In this document: piece after piece, positions 51,782 to 61,309 of the stretch
How positions within the stretch are numbered: position 1 is the stretch's first letter
Layout of the letters: every line of letters starts with the position of its first letter
Origin: an uncultured bacterium
GTDB taxonomy: Bacteria > Ratteibacteria > UBA8468 > B48-G9 > DTJG01
NCBI GenBank assembly: GCA_964532995.1
Contig: CAZHJN010000004.1
Location: 1 to 61,309 of the forward strand
DNA length: 61,309 nt
Direction: 5' to 3'
Program-made: the position numbers and the translations under genes
The notes under the pieces: model-generated
What the model saw: only the letters and a program-made list of their open reading frames with translations
Database searches by the model: none
Told to the model about the DNA's origin: nothing

Positions 51782-51834
51782 CCATGCTTGACATGGAAAT
51801 TACTTCGTGATAACGTTTATATGTACTTATAAGT
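51782..51834 (+). promoter_or_regulatory. Putative sigma70 promoter with GntR/AraR-like operator
   Basis: TTGACA (51788)-N17-TAACGT, then the imperfect palindrome ATGTACTTATAAGT (51821-51834). A CCATG-N5-CATGG dyad overlaps the -35 box. Confidence 0.6.
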
Positions 51835-51845
51835 TGAGGTGTGTT

Positions 51846-52973
51846 TTGATATTGTACAGACAGGTCAAAGAATATTTACTGAGGGAGATTGAAAAGAATA
51901 AAGAAGGCTCTATCCTTCCCAGTCAGAGCTTCCTGATGAAAAAATTTCATGTTTGCCATCTCACTGTTCGCAAAGCCCTGAAGGACCTTGAAAAAGAAGG
52001 TTTGATAGTCAGGAAACAGGGTAAGGGAACGTTCATCAGAAAAAAAATCTCAACCCGCTGTCCAAAAAGAATCCTTGTTGTAGTTCCTTCTGACTGGAAA
52101 AGTGATTGCTGGAACGCTGGTCCTTTCATGGAGAAACTTACAGATGAGGCTCTTGAAAGACAGATTCATATTTATATTTCACCTTTGGGGAAAAGCTATT
52201 ACGAGATCCTGAAACTTGTTGAATCTCAGAAATTCAATGGAGTCATATGGCTTATGCCATGGGAAAAAGACCTGCCTGTGATGAGAGAAATTTTTGAAAA
52301 AGGTTGTCATGTCATGGTGATAAACAGAATTTTTTCTGATCACAGATTCAGTTATATCAGCACAGACCACGAAATGGGCGCATATGAAGCAACAATGTAC
52401 CTGATTAATAAAGGACACAGAAGAATCGGGTTCGCAGGTTACATAAAGGTAAGCCATATTTTGCAGAGATACGCTGGTTTTCGTCGCGCTCTGGATGATT
52501 CGGGGATTGATCCATCAAAATCAGAAGTAGTAACAGCCTTCCTTGATAAAGCCCGAAAAAATCAGATTGAGGATTATCGGGAGGATTTCATCAGGATGCT
52601 TGCTGAATACAGACCAACAGCTATCTTTGTCTCGGGTGTTTCGGTCCTTCTGAATATGGTTTTGCCTGTTTTGAGAGAAAAGAAATTGCGCATACCTGAT
52701 GATCTGGAAATTTTTACCTATGATGAAATGAATAATGACATTCCAGAAAAGAGTATTATTCATGAACTGGCACAACCATTCTATGAGATGGGAAGGATTT
52801 CCATAGAAAAAATGGAATGTATTATAAAAAGGCACTGTGGTGCGATGAAAGTCATACTCAGGCCAGAATTATTGATAAAACAGGATAATGAAAATGTTTT
52901 AATACCAGTCAATCGAGGAGAAATGACGAAAGGAGGTGAGAAAAATGAAAAAGAAAGGATTTACTCTCATTGA
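51846..52973 (+). CDS. GntR-HTH plus LacI-type effector-domain transcriptional regulator (AraR-like)
   Basis: LYRQVK...LPSQ..L...[26 protein letters not shown]...[34 protein letters not shown] precedes TTG 51846/51852. Confidence 0.92.
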
Positions 52974-53628
52974 GCTTCTTGTTGTGATCGCGATCATAGC
53001 GATACTTGCAGCGATGCTATTGCCTGCGTTGAGCAAGGCAAGGGAAAAGGCAAGACAGGGTGTGTGTATGGGAAACCTGAAACAGCTGGGGCTTGCAATC
53101 TTCATGTATGCCAGTGATAACTACGGTTATCTTGTTCCTTTTAATGCTGGACCATCAAGCGATCCTTCACCTGTTGACTGGCGTACCATTGTAATCAGTT
53201 ATCTTGGAAGAACCTCAGGCACAACTCTCGGTTAGTCATTTTTCACATGCCCGACATTTAAAATTTTCTCCAATTATTATGGTATTTCAGTCCAGACCTC
53301 CTATGGCGTTAATTACCGAAATGGAGGCGGAAGAGACGCCAGATTCAGTTATGCAGGGAATTGTATGGTGAAACTTGACAGACTTCCAAAAACAACATGG
53401 CTGGTTGCTGATTCTTACAATAGTTATTGCCTTTCACCTTTACAATATTCTCCGGACAGGGATATTGACGGGGATGGTGTAAATGATTCCTGGAGCGTGG
53501 TTCTTCCCTCCTGGGTGCAATCTGGATTATGCTTCAGGCACAATGGTTTTGCAAATTTTGTTTTTGTTGATGGTTCAGTAAGACCATTGAAACCGAGAGA
53601 TTACTTCGGGAATAGTTCACTCTGGTAG
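52945..53628 (+). pseudogene. Prepilin-type (DUF1559-like, H-X9-DG) gene interrupted by an in-frame TAG at 53233-53235
   Basis: [48 protein letters not shown]. The frame stays open past the TAG through SFFTCP, SYGVN, WLVADS and RHNGFANFVFVDG. ORFs 52936..53235 and 53365..53628 are in the same frame. Confidence 0.88.
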
Positions 53629-53650
53629 CATTTTTTTAAGGGGGAAATAG

Positions 53651-58615: not shown

Positions 58616-59337
58616 GAGGAAAAATTTCTACCCTGCAAATCTATGGCGTTTTTATGACAGGTTTGCTGTTTCTAACAGCGGTTTTTCCCTCCACTTGTTT
58701 TGCCGGTGGAAGCGAAAAACAGAGCGATGAGGTCTGGAAAGAAACATTCAGACCGCCAAGAGAAAATTTCAAGCCAGAAACCGGCCAGAAATTGTTTGAT
58801 CTCAGCAAAAGTATCTTGAACAATCCGATTCTTTCAGTTGAAACACCCGGAAAACCACCAAAATCCTGGTATGGAAGTTTACGAATATGGAAGGATGTAT
58901 ACAAATCACCTGACTGTTTCAGCAGGATGGTGACAGTAGAACAGGATGCTGAAAAACCCTTTCAGAATAGACCATCCGTAAAGATTAAGATTGCACCATC
59001 TGAAGAAGATGTCTATCTTGAACTCGGTCAGGAAATCAGCATGAAAAACAGAGACCTGAAAGGGAAAAAAATACGACTCAGTTTCTATGCCTACCGTGAA
59101 AATCCGCCAACGGGCAAGGAGTTTTTCATCACGGGAATAATGTTTGATAGAGAAAAAGCCGTAATAGGTACAACTGTGGATATCCACCCGAACATTATGC
59201 CAGGGAAATGGCTTTACTTTTCGCAGGAAGGCGTGGTAAAACCTGAAACAGAGATTTTTAAATTTTCCCTCAGATTTGTTTCTGGCGGAAACGATACTGT
59301 CTGGCTTTCTGGTTTTCTGCTGGAAGAAATACAGTGA
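58612..59337 (+). CDS. Secreted carbohydrate-binding-module-like protein
   Basis: Signal peptide; jelly-roll-like pattern (PKSW, LGQEI, LKGKKIRLSFYA, GKW, TVWLSGFLLEE). ATGA overlap with the upstream gene. Confidence 0.6.
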   Translation: MRGKISTLQIYGVFMTGLLFLTAVFPSTCFAGGSEKQSDEVWKETFRPPRENFKPETGQKLFDLSKSILNNPILSVETPGKPPKSWYGSLRIWKDVYKSPDCFSRMVTVEQDAEKPFQNRPSVKIKIAPSEEDVYLELGQEISMKNRDLKGKKIRLSFYAYRENPPTGKEFFITGIMFDREKAVIGTTVDIHPNIMPGKWLYFSQEGVVKPETEIFKFSLRFVSGGNDTVWLSGFLLEEIQ

Positions 59338-59347
59338 AAGGACCCGC

Positions 59348-60634
59348 ATGGAAATCAGCGAACTTGAAAGAGATGTTGTCGTTGTTGGTGGGGGAATAGC
59401 AGGTACTTCTGCAGCAATAGCAGCCGCGAGAATGGGACACAGGGTTCTTCTTGTGGAGGAAGCCAATTGCCTCGGTGGAATTTCTTCTGCCGGAAATGTT
59501 GCCCAATGGTACGCTTCGCTTGAAGGAATGGGAAACATCTTTACCAGTATTGTTGAAACAATGGAACTCTTCGGCGCCACGATCCACCACAGATATAATC
59601 CATATAACCCTGAATACATGAAGATTGTTTTACAGCTTCTTGCAGAAGAAGCAGGCGTTGATATTTTGCTTCATACAACATTGCAGGATGTTAAATGCGA
59701 AAAGGGCTTTATTCAATCCGTAAGATTGGTATCCTGTTCAAAAACCATGGATGTGTCGGGGAGATTTTTCATTGATGCTTCTGGCGAAGGAGACCTTGGT
59801 TTTCTCGCCGGTGCTGAGTTTATGCAGGGAGACCCTTTAAAAGGCAGAACCCTGCATATGAGCCTTGTGTTTTTTCTATCAGATACAGGAAAACCGGTTA
59901 AAACATATCTTCCGCCAGATATGGAACCGATTGCCTGCAAGGAGCAGCTTCCGGGTCTGCATGTTTATGCGAAATGGTTTGATGGCAGAATTTACTGCAA
60001 TATGACAAAGATTATAGATCATGATCCGACAGATCCATTTTCTCTTTCTGATGCAGAACTGGAAGCCAGACGTCAGATTGTTCGCGTCGTTCATTTCCTG
60101 CAAAGTAAATACTTCCCCACATATACGATCTGTTCTTCGGGTTCAAAAATCGGCATAAGAGAAGGAAGGAGAATTGTCGGTGACTATGTGCTGAAAAAAG
60201 AGGATATTCTTGGTGATAAGCCATTTGACTGCTATGATGGGATATGTGTGGCGACATCTCAGATTGACCTGCACAGTCTTACAAAACCAGGACACGGTGG
60301 CTGGAGGAAAAAAGTTTTACCATATGCAATTCCTTTTCGCTGTATCGTTGCAAAGGGATTCAAAAATTTGTTGATGGCAGGCAAATGTATAAGTGTTGAT
60401 CAGGTTGTTCACAGCAGTTGCCGTATGATTCCAACCTGTTGTGGCATGGGTCAGGCAGCAGGTACCGCTGTTGCTATGGCTGTTGAAGCAGGAAAAGATG
60501 ATGTAAGAGGAATATCAATTGAAAGGCTAAAAAGACAGCTTGAATACGATGGAATGGTGGTTAACCCTGAAAAACATGAGTATTATTGTGGTCAGGAAAC
60601 AGATGTGCCTGACGAAGAAAAAGGGTTAAAGTAG
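59348..60634 (+). CDS. FAD-dependent oxidoreductase (FAD_oxidored family)
   Basis: Motifs DVVVVGGGIAG, LGG, FIDASGEGD, IREGRRIVG, YAIPFRC, NLLMAGKCIS, MGQAAG. Confidence 0.92.
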   Translation: MEISELERDVVVVGGGIAGTSAAIAAARMGHRVLLVEEANCLGGISSAGNVAQWYASLEGMGNIFTSIVETMELFGATIHHRYNPYNPEYMKIVLQLLAEEAGVDILLHTTLQDVKCEKGFIQSVRLVSCSKTMDVSGRFFIDASGEGDLGFLAGAEFMQGDPLKGRTLHMSLVFFLSDTGKPVKTYLPPDMEPIACKEQLPGLHVYAKWFDGRIYCNMTKIIDHDPTDPFSLSDAELEARRQIVRVVHFLQSKYFPTYTICSSGSKIGIREGRRIVGDYVLKKEDILGDKPFDCYDGICVATSQIDLHSLTKPGHGGWRKKVLPYAIPFRCIVAKGFKNLLMAGKCISVDQVVHSSCRMIPTCCGMGQAAGTAVAMAVEAGKDDVRGISIERLKRQLEYDGMVVNPEKHEYYCGQETDVPDEEKGLK

Positions 60635-60656
60635 ATTGTCTCTTGAAAAAGATACT

Positions 60657-61309
60657 ATGAAAAGATGCAGAATTATCTACAACCAGGATTGCACAAATCT
60701 TTTTTCTATTATAAAAGAACCCATCAAACCCGGACATATTGTTTCCATGATTGATGAGATTGCAGAGGGTGGGGCAGATTTAATACTTATCAATCCCAAC
60801 GCTCAGAAGACCAACTACAGAAGCAAAGTGTGGGAAAATTTCTGGGAATGCAACTATCAGGATATGCCGCACAGCTTCCGTCAGATGAAACATCTTGCAG
60901 AGCAGGGATACGATTATCTGAAACTTACTCTTGATAGATGCAGAGAAAAGGCTGTTGCTTCTGGAATCAGCATCAGAATGAATGATATGCATGGCGCGCT
61001 GGAGCCAGACACCCATATTATGAATAGTTCTTTTTATAAGCAGCATCCTGAATATCGCCTACCCGGTTCAGCAAAAGATGGCTGGGGAAGAATCGGTTTT
61101 AACTATGAATATAAACAGGTCAGGTCGCACTATTTGAGATTGATTGGTGAAATTGTGGAGGATTATAATTTTGATGTGCTTGAACTTGATTTCCTGCGTT
61201 TTCCGAATTATTTTCCGCCAGGCGATTGTGAAAGACACTGTAATATTATGACAGAATTTCTCAAACAGGTAAAAACGATTACAGAGAGAAAGAAGATTGA
61301 TCTTTACAT
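60657..61309 (+). CDS. GHL10-like glycoside hydrolase, partial (runs off the window end; absent from the ORF track)
   Basis: Manual translation MKRCRIIYNQDCTN...ISIRMNDMH...HPEY...FNYEYKQVR...YNFDVLELDFLRFP, with no stop before the window end. Confidence 0.8.
   Translation, partial: MKRCRIIYNQDCTNLFSIIKEPIKPGHIVSMIDEIAEGGADLILINPNAQKTNYRSKVWENFWECNYQDMPHSFRQMKHLAEQGYDYLKLTLDRCREKAVASGISIRMNDMHGALEPDTHIMNSSFYKQHPEYRLPGSAKDGWGRIGFNYEYKQVRSHYLRLIGEIVEDYNFDVLELDFLRFPNYFPPGDCERHCNIMTEFLKQVKTITERKKIDLY

Follow-up and report, generated by a model that had tools for sequence, protein, structure and literature searches.

A DUF1559/H-X9-DG prepilin gene in a putatively self-repressed glycan operon of a Ratteibacteria genome: a candidate substrate-dedicated pilin

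The window analysed here is the whole of contig CAZHJN010000004.1 (61,309 nucleotides, nt; hereafter C4) of an uncultured bacterium assigned to the Ratteibacteria, whose genome of about 2 Mb is 97.9% complete and whose DNA occurs in sequencing runs of freshwater and freshwater-sediment metagenomes. Six tightly packed co-directional open reading frames (ORFs), overlapping or separated by very short gaps, occupy the plus strand from position 51782 to the contig end. The second of them is a prepilin gene of the DUF1559/H-X9-DG family. In Planctomycetota, Verrucomicrobiota and their relatives, few paralogous families that lack a function are as large as this one. The gene is placed directly behind the gene of a putative sugar-responsive repressor and in front of the gene of a giant glycoside hydrolase (GH)-like protein, and the regulator-prepilin pair was found repeatedly in this genome and in its phylum. 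We tentatively propose that the pilin is a substrate-dedicated accessory subunit in the capture or import of a glycan. The features of the operon are as follows (aa, amino acids; FAD, flavin adenine dinucleotide).

51788-51816, plus strand: putative promoter, with −35 TTGACA (51788-51793), a 17-nt spacer with TG, and −10 TAACGT (51811-51816)
51817-51832, plus strand: putative operator, a 16-bp palindrome TTATATGTACTTATAA, symmetric at 15/16 positions around a GT/AC core; it overlaps the site where transcription is expected to start
51846-52973, plus strand: regulator, 375 aa, TTG start behind GAGG, GntR winged helix plus LacI-type sugar-binding domain
52945-53628, plus strand: DUF1559/H-X9-DG prepilin gene, 227 codons, ATG behind AGGAGG and 29 nt before the regulator's stop, in-frame TAG at 53233-53235
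53651-58615, plus strand: giant secreted multidomain protein, 1654 aa, with a GH42-like TIM-barrel part, GH42M, DUF7408 and a weakly MG2-like C-terminus
58612-59337, plus strand: probable lipoprotein, 241 aa, possibly a carbohydrate-binding beta-sandwich, its start overlapping the stop of the giant gene by 4 nt
59348-60634, plus strand: FAD oxidoreductase (PF12831, 303.6 bits), no signal peptide, its ATG at 59348 corresponding to the start of the orthologue in the related cassette G012
60657-61309, plus strand: sixth gene, the first approximately 218 codons of a protein of approximately 500 aa, no signal peptide, cut by the contig end and continued on contig C61

The gene set of the genome was a crude ORF-based call (1807 ORFs, of which 1767 end in a stop). 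Families were assigned with the Pfam and NCBIfam profile libraries, and nearest clusters of the ESM Atlas are given as leads, which are not family-model matches. Paralogues of the regulator within the genome were found by phmmer. The phylum was represented by its 65 species genomes in the genome collection, and the counts of phylum loci for the regulator refer to the 30 best-match loci, one per genome, this genome's included. The depositor titles of related protein and locus records read Candidatus Omnitrophota, Omnitrophica or Ratteibacteria; according to the part of one preprint that treats the naming, Ratteibacteria of GTDB frequently carry the Omnitrophica label (10.1101/2023.11.21.568195).

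The prepilin gene starts inside the end of the regulator gene (29-nt overlap) and ends 22 nt before the giant gene, and therefore lies inside the transcription unit. When the regions upstream of the regulator were aligned for four orthologous loci, TTGACA (51788-51793) was invariant, and a −10-like hexamer was present at the same position in all of them (TAACGT here, TAGAAT in two relatives). The element TTATATGTACTTATAA is kept in 4/4 of these loci, directly after the −10, and one relative carries the perfect palindrome TTATAAGTACTTATAA at the operator position. Operators of the GntR type typically have a GT/AC core. In a scan of the whole genome allowing at most one mismatch, the palindrome was found only at 51817-51832. 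A conserved promoter with an adjoining palindrome that is unique in the genome is the layout of a locally acting, self-repressing regulator. A consensus promoter scan stayed below its threshold over 51782-51846 and flagged no promoter there. The regulator matches GntR (PF00392, 54.6 bits; cut-off 27) and Peripla_BP_3 (PF13377, 53.1 bits; cut-off 26.5), and is a hybrid of a GntR helix-turn-helix and a LacI-type domain, a putative repressor with a palindrome at its own promoter.

These results bear on an earlier note on this DNA, made from the letters of the window, which had described one promoter/operator followed by close-packed genes of one direction (regulator, prepilin, 1654-aa GH42-like protein, CBM-like protein, FAD oxidoreductase and GHL10-like hydrolase). 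The gene order is seen in the sequence, the promoter/operator is borne out by the elements conserved in the four orthologous loci, and the two domain matches confirm the GntR-LacI hybrid. As for the claimed class III prepilin with the H-X9-DG motif, the family and the motif were recovered, but the frame is broken by the in-frame TAG.

The prepilin carries the class III signal peptide motif (GFTxxE, cleaved after the G) with a hydrophobic helix, and matches N_methyl (PF07963, 39.9 bits; cut-off 21.2) and TIGR02532 (37.9 bits; cut-off 16.3). Its N-terminal half matches DUF1559/PF07596 at 32 bits (cut-off 23.3), over profile positions 2-40 of 268 only, and its C-terminal half matches the H-X9-DG model TIGR04294 at 20.8 bits (cut-off 19) with the motif RHNGFANFVFVDG. 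The positions conserved in the family are the N-terminal helix, Cys 41, Cys 102, Y120, H199, N204, D209 and G210. The TAG at 53233-53235 follows residue 96 and splits the gene into two called ORFs. A recoded TAG was considered and rejected: among the 1767 ORFs with a stop, TGA is used by 850, TAA by 688 and TAG by 229, and the terminal stop of the prepilin gene is itself TAG; no search for pyrrolysine genes was made. The allele was checked in Logan contigs of four freshwater metagenome runs, which as contigs give no allele frequency. Base 53233 is T in contigs of one run, possibly the window's own source, and C, giving CAG (Gln), in one contig each of two runs from other studies. A read-through query with X at the break retrieved seven prepilin orthologues (225-228 aa, 59-67% identity), none of them split. 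With CAG in two other studies and all seven orthologues unsplit, the gene is intact in related populations; the TAG of the window is a C-to-T nonsense change specific to the strain or, alternatively, an error.

The read-through prepilin was modelled with AlphaFold2 from 105 aligned sequences. The model (mean predicted local distance difference test score 85.4, predicted TM score 0.81) consists of a long N-terminal helix (residues 8-58) and a small beta sheet. In an exhaustive structure alignment (VIA-align), the top 11 matches were all pilins or pseudopilins, with Z values of only 5.8 to 4.0. The best were Thermus PilA4 (Z 5.8, root-mean-square deviation (rmsd) 3.7, 117 aligned), EpsG (4.9), PilV (4.9) and ComP (4.7, rmsd 4.3, 103 aligned); PulG was also among the fold matches (Z 3.7). 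The matches in a profile search of the PDB were confined to the N-terminal helix of pilins. Since the Z values are low, the model agrees with a pilin head but does not prove it. For a predicted complex of pilin head and 241-aa lipoprotein, based on a natural pair of intact orthologues (P0009, residues 29-227; P0131, residues 35-245), the score was 0.04 against a mark of 0.32, which decides neither for nor against contact.

Three features were found in the occurrence of the regulator-prepilin pair. One is its regularity within the genome: all six regulator paralogues (6/6) have a same-strand prepilin gene directly next to them, and with 36 prepilin-type genes among the 1807, the five further pairs would arise by chance with a probability of about 3e-9. 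Another is that a large secreted GH-like protein follows the pilin in 4/5 of the paralogue loci that can be judged. Among the other five pairs, the gene after the pilin encodes a 1613-aa giant paralogue on C16 and a DUF4838 protein on each of C11 and C53 (785 and 982 aa, one of the two with the carbohydrate-binding module CBM9); on C34, genes for adenosine kinase and an Mrp-type antiporter come next, and on C75 the contig ends there. The last feature is that the pair extends to the phylum. The regulator has a match at E ≤ 1e-10 in 52/65 genomes; at the 30 best-match loci, a prepilin is next in 15, a contig end cuts 3 and other genes follow in 12, and at the 13 closest loci, a prepilin is next in 11 and 2 are cut. 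The earlier note had expected the order of regulator and then pilin to recur, and both the 6/6 paralogues and the 15/30 loci agree with this.

The presence of an assembly machine was examined in the same genome. It contains one Peptidase_A24 prepilin peptidase, three secretins, five long GspE/PilB-type (T2SSE) ATPases and three shorter ones of PilT length, one of which was confirmed as PilT; PilC/GspF is found on C27, and C37 and C50 each have other candidates for it. These genes form three machine sets: a canonical type II secretion system (T2SS) on C37, a type IVa pilus locus of the PilMNOPQ type on C3 and a PilB-PilT-PilC operon on C27. C50 and C19 carry two more ATPase genes. The idea of one core machine was rejected on account of the three sets.

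In the C27 operon, the order is GspE/PilB ATPase, PilT (447 bits; cut-off 319), a second PilB of the MshE type with a cyclic di-GMP (c-di-GMP)-binding N-domain (61.9 bits; cut-off 38), PilC/GspF, an H-X9-DG prepilin and further pilin-like proteins. An orthologue of this PilC is present in 59/65 phylum genomes (E ≤ 1e-60), and in 28/30 loci, one per genome, the gene after PilC is a GFTxxE prepilin, which in 25 also has H-X9-DG. In the first 32 residues, 27/30 scorable pilins of the genome (the C27 machine pilin is one of the 30) share 18-25 with the machine pilin, 10-13 with GspG and 12-15 with PilA. Three outliers (C27_25, C39_8 and C46_3) share 6-9 of 32 with the machine pilin, and two PilA-like pilins on C3 share 13 of 32 with it. 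We infer from these comparisons that the C27 machine assembles the DUF1559 family.

The main rival explanation, which we regard as unlikely, concerns the C37 type of machine: the cassette pilin would be a cargo-dedicated pseudopilin, and a T2SS-like machine would export the giant enzyme, the lipoprotein and a CBM9 protein of the operon or hold them on the surface. The pilin shares the class III signal peptide and a similar stretch of the first approximately 75 residues with GspG/PulG/EpsG, its N-terminal half weakly matches the GspG model (TIGR01710, 44.8 bits), and EpsG and PulG were among the fold matches. The T2SS on C37 is complete. Some 2.5 kb beyond the end of this gene set, and separated from it by a DNA-polymerase-I-like ORF annotated by its N-terminus only, three DUF1559 genes follow downstream. 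The neighbours of cassette pilins are also typically large proteins with signal peptides. However, the C37 system has its own true GspG (150 aa, 165.2 bits against the equivalog cut-off of 88.85), whereas the cassette pilin falls below that cut-off, is about 80 residues longer (227 vs 150 aa) and has another C-terminal motif. Its N-terminus shares 24/32 residues with the C27 machine pilin and 12/32 with GspG, and the C27 machine has a PilT retraction ATPase, which T2SSs, to our knowledge, lack. Moreover, a DUF1559 pilin of the H-X9-DG type also heads an operon of ZnuA (PF01297), an ATP-binding cassette (ABC) ATPase and an ABC-3 permease (C77:360-3447, L131), and this ZnuABC operon has no exoenzyme to export.

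We now turn to the remaining genes of the operon. The giant protein has a signal-peptide-like N-terminus and matches GH42 (PF02449, 62.8 bits), over profile positions 99-234 of 376 only, and GH42M (PF08532, 46.7 bits); beta-galactosidases of the PDB match it at E 8e-12. In the alignment with the GH42 enzyme 3tts, its TDEL falls on SNEY and its FCFCEHC on the Cys motif YCYCDNC, which we take to be the acid/base Glu motif and the zinc motif of GH42, respectively. Because TDEL aligns to SNEY, the acid/base Glu appears to be kept. The 241-aa protein has no Pfam or NCBIfam match and only 8 relatives in a set of 5.8 billion proteins. Since all of them have an invariant Cys where the signal peptide ends, it is probably a lipoprotein. 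As an ESM Atlas lead, 9/30 of its nearest clusters carry CBM_4_9 (score 0.95). The FAD oxidoreductase is 78% identical to its orthologue in the G012 cassette. For the sixth gene, neither the fragment nor its 501-aa orthologue nor its 569-aa paralogue has a Pfam match, and the fragment has no NCBIfam match either; the ESM Atlas lead is that 11-24% of the members of the nearest clusters carry GHL10 (PF02638). The earlier note was therefore right about a 1654-aa secreted GH42-like protein and an FAD oxidoreductase, while its secreted CBM-like protein and its GHL10-like hydrolase keep the ESM Atlas leads and lack a family-model match.

The last 55 bases of C4 are identical to the first 55 of C61, and this overlap adds a continuation of 7.4 kb with five more genes. 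On the same strand, C61 carries the rest of the sixth gene, a xylose-isomerase-like TIM barrel, a GFO/IDH/MocA oxidoreductase, a CBM9 protein (615 aa, signal-peptide-like N-terminus), a metallo-beta-lactamase-fold protein and, as the last operon gene, a sulfatase-GGDEF fusion (C61:5321-7435, L147; 704 aa, no signal peptide). In G012, the order is the same from the giant gene on, with 56-78% identity; one extra sulfatase precedes the last gene, and the orthologue of the fusion has no GGDEF part. The sulfatases in the cassette suggest a sulfated glycan as the substrate. The FAD oxidoreductase, the xylose-isomerase-like barrel and the GFO/IDH/MocA oxidoreductase (59348-61309 plus C61:899-2694) form a grouping that presumably resembles the oxidative (3-keto) routes of glycoside cleavage. 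As a separate observation, the operon contains a GGDEF protein and the C27 machine contains an MshE-like c-di-GMP-binding ATPase, so a c-di-GMP link between them is conceivable.

No transporter gene was found in the operon, its C61 continuation or the related G012 cassette. The description of the cassette as transporter-less could not be read from the window, which ends inside the sixth gene, but it holds after the extension by C61 and G012, and no conventional transporter was found directly downstream. Because the FAD oxidoreductase, the sixth gene product and the sulfatase-GGDEF fusion have no signal peptide, a carrier that takes the products into the cytoplasm must, on these predictions, be encoded outside the operon. 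In the 97.9%-complete genome, no match was found to the TonB-dependent barrel (PF00593), SusD (PF07980), SBP_bac_8, MFS_2 or SSF; six BPD_transp_1 matches correspond to approximately three ABC systems. TonB-dependent barrels above the family cut-off occur in 11/65 phylum genomes. The genome also has two TonB_C domain matches (C46:13417-13638 and C3:17499-17678).

The need for an import step at the inner membrane, which the cytoplasmic enzymes imply and which is absent from the operon, leads to another possibility, in our judgement an improbable one. The N-terminal helix would keep the cleaved protein in the inner membrane as an anchor, and the protein would act as a periplasmic oligosaccharide binder or sensor, serving a transporter encoded elsewhere, or in signalling. 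The Pfam name of the family, SBP_bac_10, is in keeping with this, as is the DUF1559 gene in front of ZnuA-ZnuBC, and N_methyl plus SBP_bac_10 proteins of Tuwongella fractionate with membranes in the part of that study dealing with them (PMC8567305). Against such a role, the model has a pilin-type fold and no periplasmic-binding-protein fold was among its matches, and a family member occupies the pilin slot after PilC in 28/30 genomes. The extreme conservation of the polymerisation helix among the paralogues is likewise what would be expected of co-assembling subunits.

We return to the pilin as a substrate-dedicated accessory pilin in glycan capture or import, a reading to which we give a probability of roughly 0.4. 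The operon of at least 11 genes would be self-repressed and inducible by a sugar, and would serve the breakdown of a complex, probably sulfated, glycan. The GntR/LacI-type repressor would sit on the palindrome at the transcription start and be released once its sugar-binding domain is occupied. The giant GH42-like enzyme, the lipoprotein and the CBM9 protein would be secreted, and the redox, isomerase-like and sulfatase-type enzymes would act in the cytoplasm. The second gene would provide a type IV pilin-like DUF1559/H-X9-DG protein. The single prepilin peptidase would process this protein, and the phylum-conserved PilB-PilT-MshE-like-PilC machine, which has a DUF1559/H-X9-DG pilin itself, would assemble it into a filament. 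As a substrate-dedicated subunit, it would capture the glycan or its fragments and aid their passage through the outer membrane, a step for which SusC/D or TonB-dependent receptors serve in other bacteria. This is close to what the earlier note had proposed, a capture subunit of a shared machine. The recurring module, the existing pilus/T2SS assembly genes (peptidase, ATPases, PilC/GspF and secretins) and the absence of matches to the conventional uptake families searched speak for that proposal. Our own reading also draws on the tight gene packing, the conserved promoter and operator, the N-terminal likeness to the C27 machine pilin, the pilins among the fold matches, the DUF1559 pilin at the head of the ZnuABC importer operon and the dextran-binding fibres of planctomycetes. 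For the earlier proposal, the three machines, the moderate link to carbohydrate-active enzymes (CAZymes), the MFS_1 genes and the nonsense allele are points against.

The following results weigh against our reading or that of the earlier note. First, three machines were found where the note had looked to a single core PilB/PilC/PilD/secretin set. Second, the uptake families are not uniformly scarce: SusD, the TonB-dependent barrel and SBP_bac_8 are absent from the matches, as the note had predicted for SusC/D and sugar ABC systems, but 13 MFS_1 matches, grouped as roughly eight or nine genes, occur elsewhere in the genome. Third, 12/30 best-match phylum loci have no pilin after the regulator. 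In a wider sample of 27 full-length GntR-LacI hybrids, taken from the whole genome collection by a pattern scan from a 4-row regulator alignment, a prepilin was next in only 2/27, one of them labelled Omnitrophota like the genome's kin; the count was 0/16 in Bacillota and 0/5 in Victivallaceae/Lentisphaerae/Verrucomicrobia. Fourth, a Foldseek search of the prepilin model against the PDB gave nothing at E ≤ 0.001, and the matches of the aligner were all below Z 8. Fifth, the window allele has a nonsense codon at residue 97, and the prepilin gene at the closest orthologous locus (G011:C135, L045, approximately 2550-3450, minus strand) is broken as well: just behind the conserved N-terminal helix, a short segment is duplicated and the frame shifts. 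The latter is a real lesion or an assembly fault, and a fault is plausible there because some 30 paralogues are nearly identical at that position. Thus, the prepilin may be dispensable, or both disruptions may be assembly faults.

The last of these points concerns the neighbours of the pilins. A first test, in which 12/36 pilins had a CAZyme-like gene within two genes against a background of 9.5%, was discarded as circular because the CAZyme-family seeds had been chosen from pilin neighbours. Among non-seed CAZyme-like genes, 3/43 lie within two genes of a pilin, compared with 5.5% of all genes. An annotation-free test gave an enrichment of only about threefold: 13/36 pilins adjoin a gene of at least 700 aa, compared with 12.8% of other genes, and this count was reached in 1/5000 permutations. 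The association between pilins and large genes is thus real but moderate, and most glycoside-hydrolase-like genes of the genome have no pilin beside them. The enrichment beside CAZymes that the earlier note had predicted was found in this moderate, size-based form and not among the non-seed CAZyme-like genes.

A further explanation, which we consider very improbable, is that the pilin has no role in glycan use. In that case, the genes would be paralogues, dispersed over the genome, of a pilus for the envelope or for adhesion, the regulator-pilin unit would be a lineage-specific duplicated pair beside various operons, and the copy here would be a decaying pseudogene. The broken genes of the window and G011 and the missing enrichment among non-seed CAZyme-like genes fit this. 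So does the pair on C34, where the genes that come next encode adenosine kinase and an Mrp-type antiporter instead of CAZymes. The genes beside many pilins are also unrelated to glycans, among them those for DegT aminotransferases, a Memo-like protein and an aldo-keto reductase; the ZnuABC importer is another annotated neighbour, and other pilins have GH20-like, GH123, GH38, PcRGLX-like, DUF4838 and sulfatase genes beside them. On the other side, the pilin gene is embedded in the transcription unit by its 29-nt overlap and 22-nt gap, CAG occurs in two other populations beside the seven intact orthologues, and all three full-length giant GH42-like paralogues of the genome, the window's included, lie directly beside a prepilin. 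In addition, an orthologue of the pilin and one of the lipoprotein are each on a contig of 22671 bases, possibly one and the same.

The proposed glycan-capturing pilin can be compared with known systems. ComP of Neisseria, the receptor for the DNA uptake sequence in the competence pilus, is an accessory (non-core) minor pilin of the kind that lends a pilus its ligand specificity. It joins a conserved polymerisation helix to a variable head in one subunit of pilin fold, as the window pilin would on its model. The work proposed for the window pilin, capture by a filament and PilT-driven retraction, is ComP-like, and a PilT is present in the C27 candidate machine. In contrast to ComP, its proposed ligand is a glycan and not DNA, its gene is in a catabolic operon under a putative sugar repressor and not in a pilus locus, dozens of DUF1559 paralogues exist per genome, and the H-X9-DG C-terminal motif is specific to the DUF1559 family. 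Polysaccharide utilisation loci (PULs) of Bacteroidota resemble the operon in that one regulated locus holds a regulator, surface or secreted proteins that bind and degrade glycans, and catabolic enzymes. They differ from it in that no SusD or TonB-dependent barrel match was found here, a pilin-type gene takes the place of the uptake pair, and the regulator is a cytoplasmic GntR/LacI hybrid.

The closest parallel in function comes from planctomycetes. In the part of the work that describes them, pili-like fibres on crateriform structures bind gold-labelled dextran, polysaccharide accumulates in the periplasm, and the authors speculate on a role of the fibres in uptake (Boedeker et al. 2017, PMC5394234). 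In that part, no genes are named, whereas candidate genes are given here, for a different phylum. The players in polysaccharide uptake by these bacteria are still called unknown in the relevant passages of a 2025 review (PMC12673574), and DUF1559 is treated as a large paralogous family of unknown function in the parts of the literature that mention it. Sixty-eight DUF1559 paralogues, two of them essential, are reported for Planctopirus (PMC10632474), and 91 N_methyl plus SBP_bac_10 proteins, which fractionate with membranes and are often flanked by signal-peptide genes, for Tuwongella (PMC8567305), as far as the respective sections go. These are the same family with similarly large paralogue numbers, and no pairing with a regulator, CAZyme operon context or candidate machine is reported in those sections of the two papers. 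A full-text literature search found no paper describing the regulator-pilin-CAZyme module; the supplementary tables of PMC8567305 and PMC10632474 may list neighbourhoods.

For this family, the pilin in a putatively sugar-repressed enzyme operon, together with the conserved PilB-PilT-PilC machine and its pilin of the same family, supplies genes and an operator that can be named and a plausible class of substrate. If the import reading is true, large nutrients would have a second route across the outer membrane besides TonB-dependent receptors. If it fails, the module would still be a useful marker of glycan loci where SusC/D-based PUL prediction finds nothing. A wider generalisation is quite doubtful: DUF1559/H-X9-DG pilins might be interchangeable substrate-dedicated adaptors of one retractile PilB-PilT-PilC filament, each co-induced with the operon for catabolism or uptake of its substrate (a glycan in the present case, zinc for the C77 operon), and form an outer-membrane import route replacing TonB-dependent receptors in PVC-type (Planctomycetes, Verrucomicrobia and Chlamydiae) and neighbouring phyla.

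Two further features are located upstream of the operon promoter.

50587-50614, plus strand: context promoter, TTGACA-16 nt-TATAAT, perfect sigma-70 consensus, 12/12 in the scan
50667-51773, plus strand: URO-D/MtaA-like gene, 368 aa, weak TIGR01463 match, directly upstream of the operon promoter

The former lies in the divergent intergenic region between a 1062-aa GH-like gene and the URO-D-like gene. Because it is a perfect consensus promoter upstream of the operon, it may give a longer transcript that includes the URO-D-like gene. The paralogous families in this 2-Mb genome are large: phmmer found 8 relatives of the URO-D/MtaA-like protein, one of which closes a paralogous giant-GH cluster on C12, and 16 relatives of the GH42M/GLMA-like protein of approximately 1000 aa encoded at 47410-50598 of the window.

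Several other DUF1559 prepilin loci were also noticed. In the window itself (3995-11169), a second prepilin gene (5646-6323, minus strand) heads minus-strand genes for a HEAT-repeat protein, a GDSL esterase and a 1024-aa GH42M/GLMA-like protein, and a GH20-like gene is convergent on this run. At C84:377-4040 and C16:9870-13093, a DegT-type aminotransferase gene and a second enzyme gene stand directly before one or two DUF1559 prepilin genes; the second enzyme is a PIG-L deacetylase in one of these loci and a ceramidase-like protein in the other.

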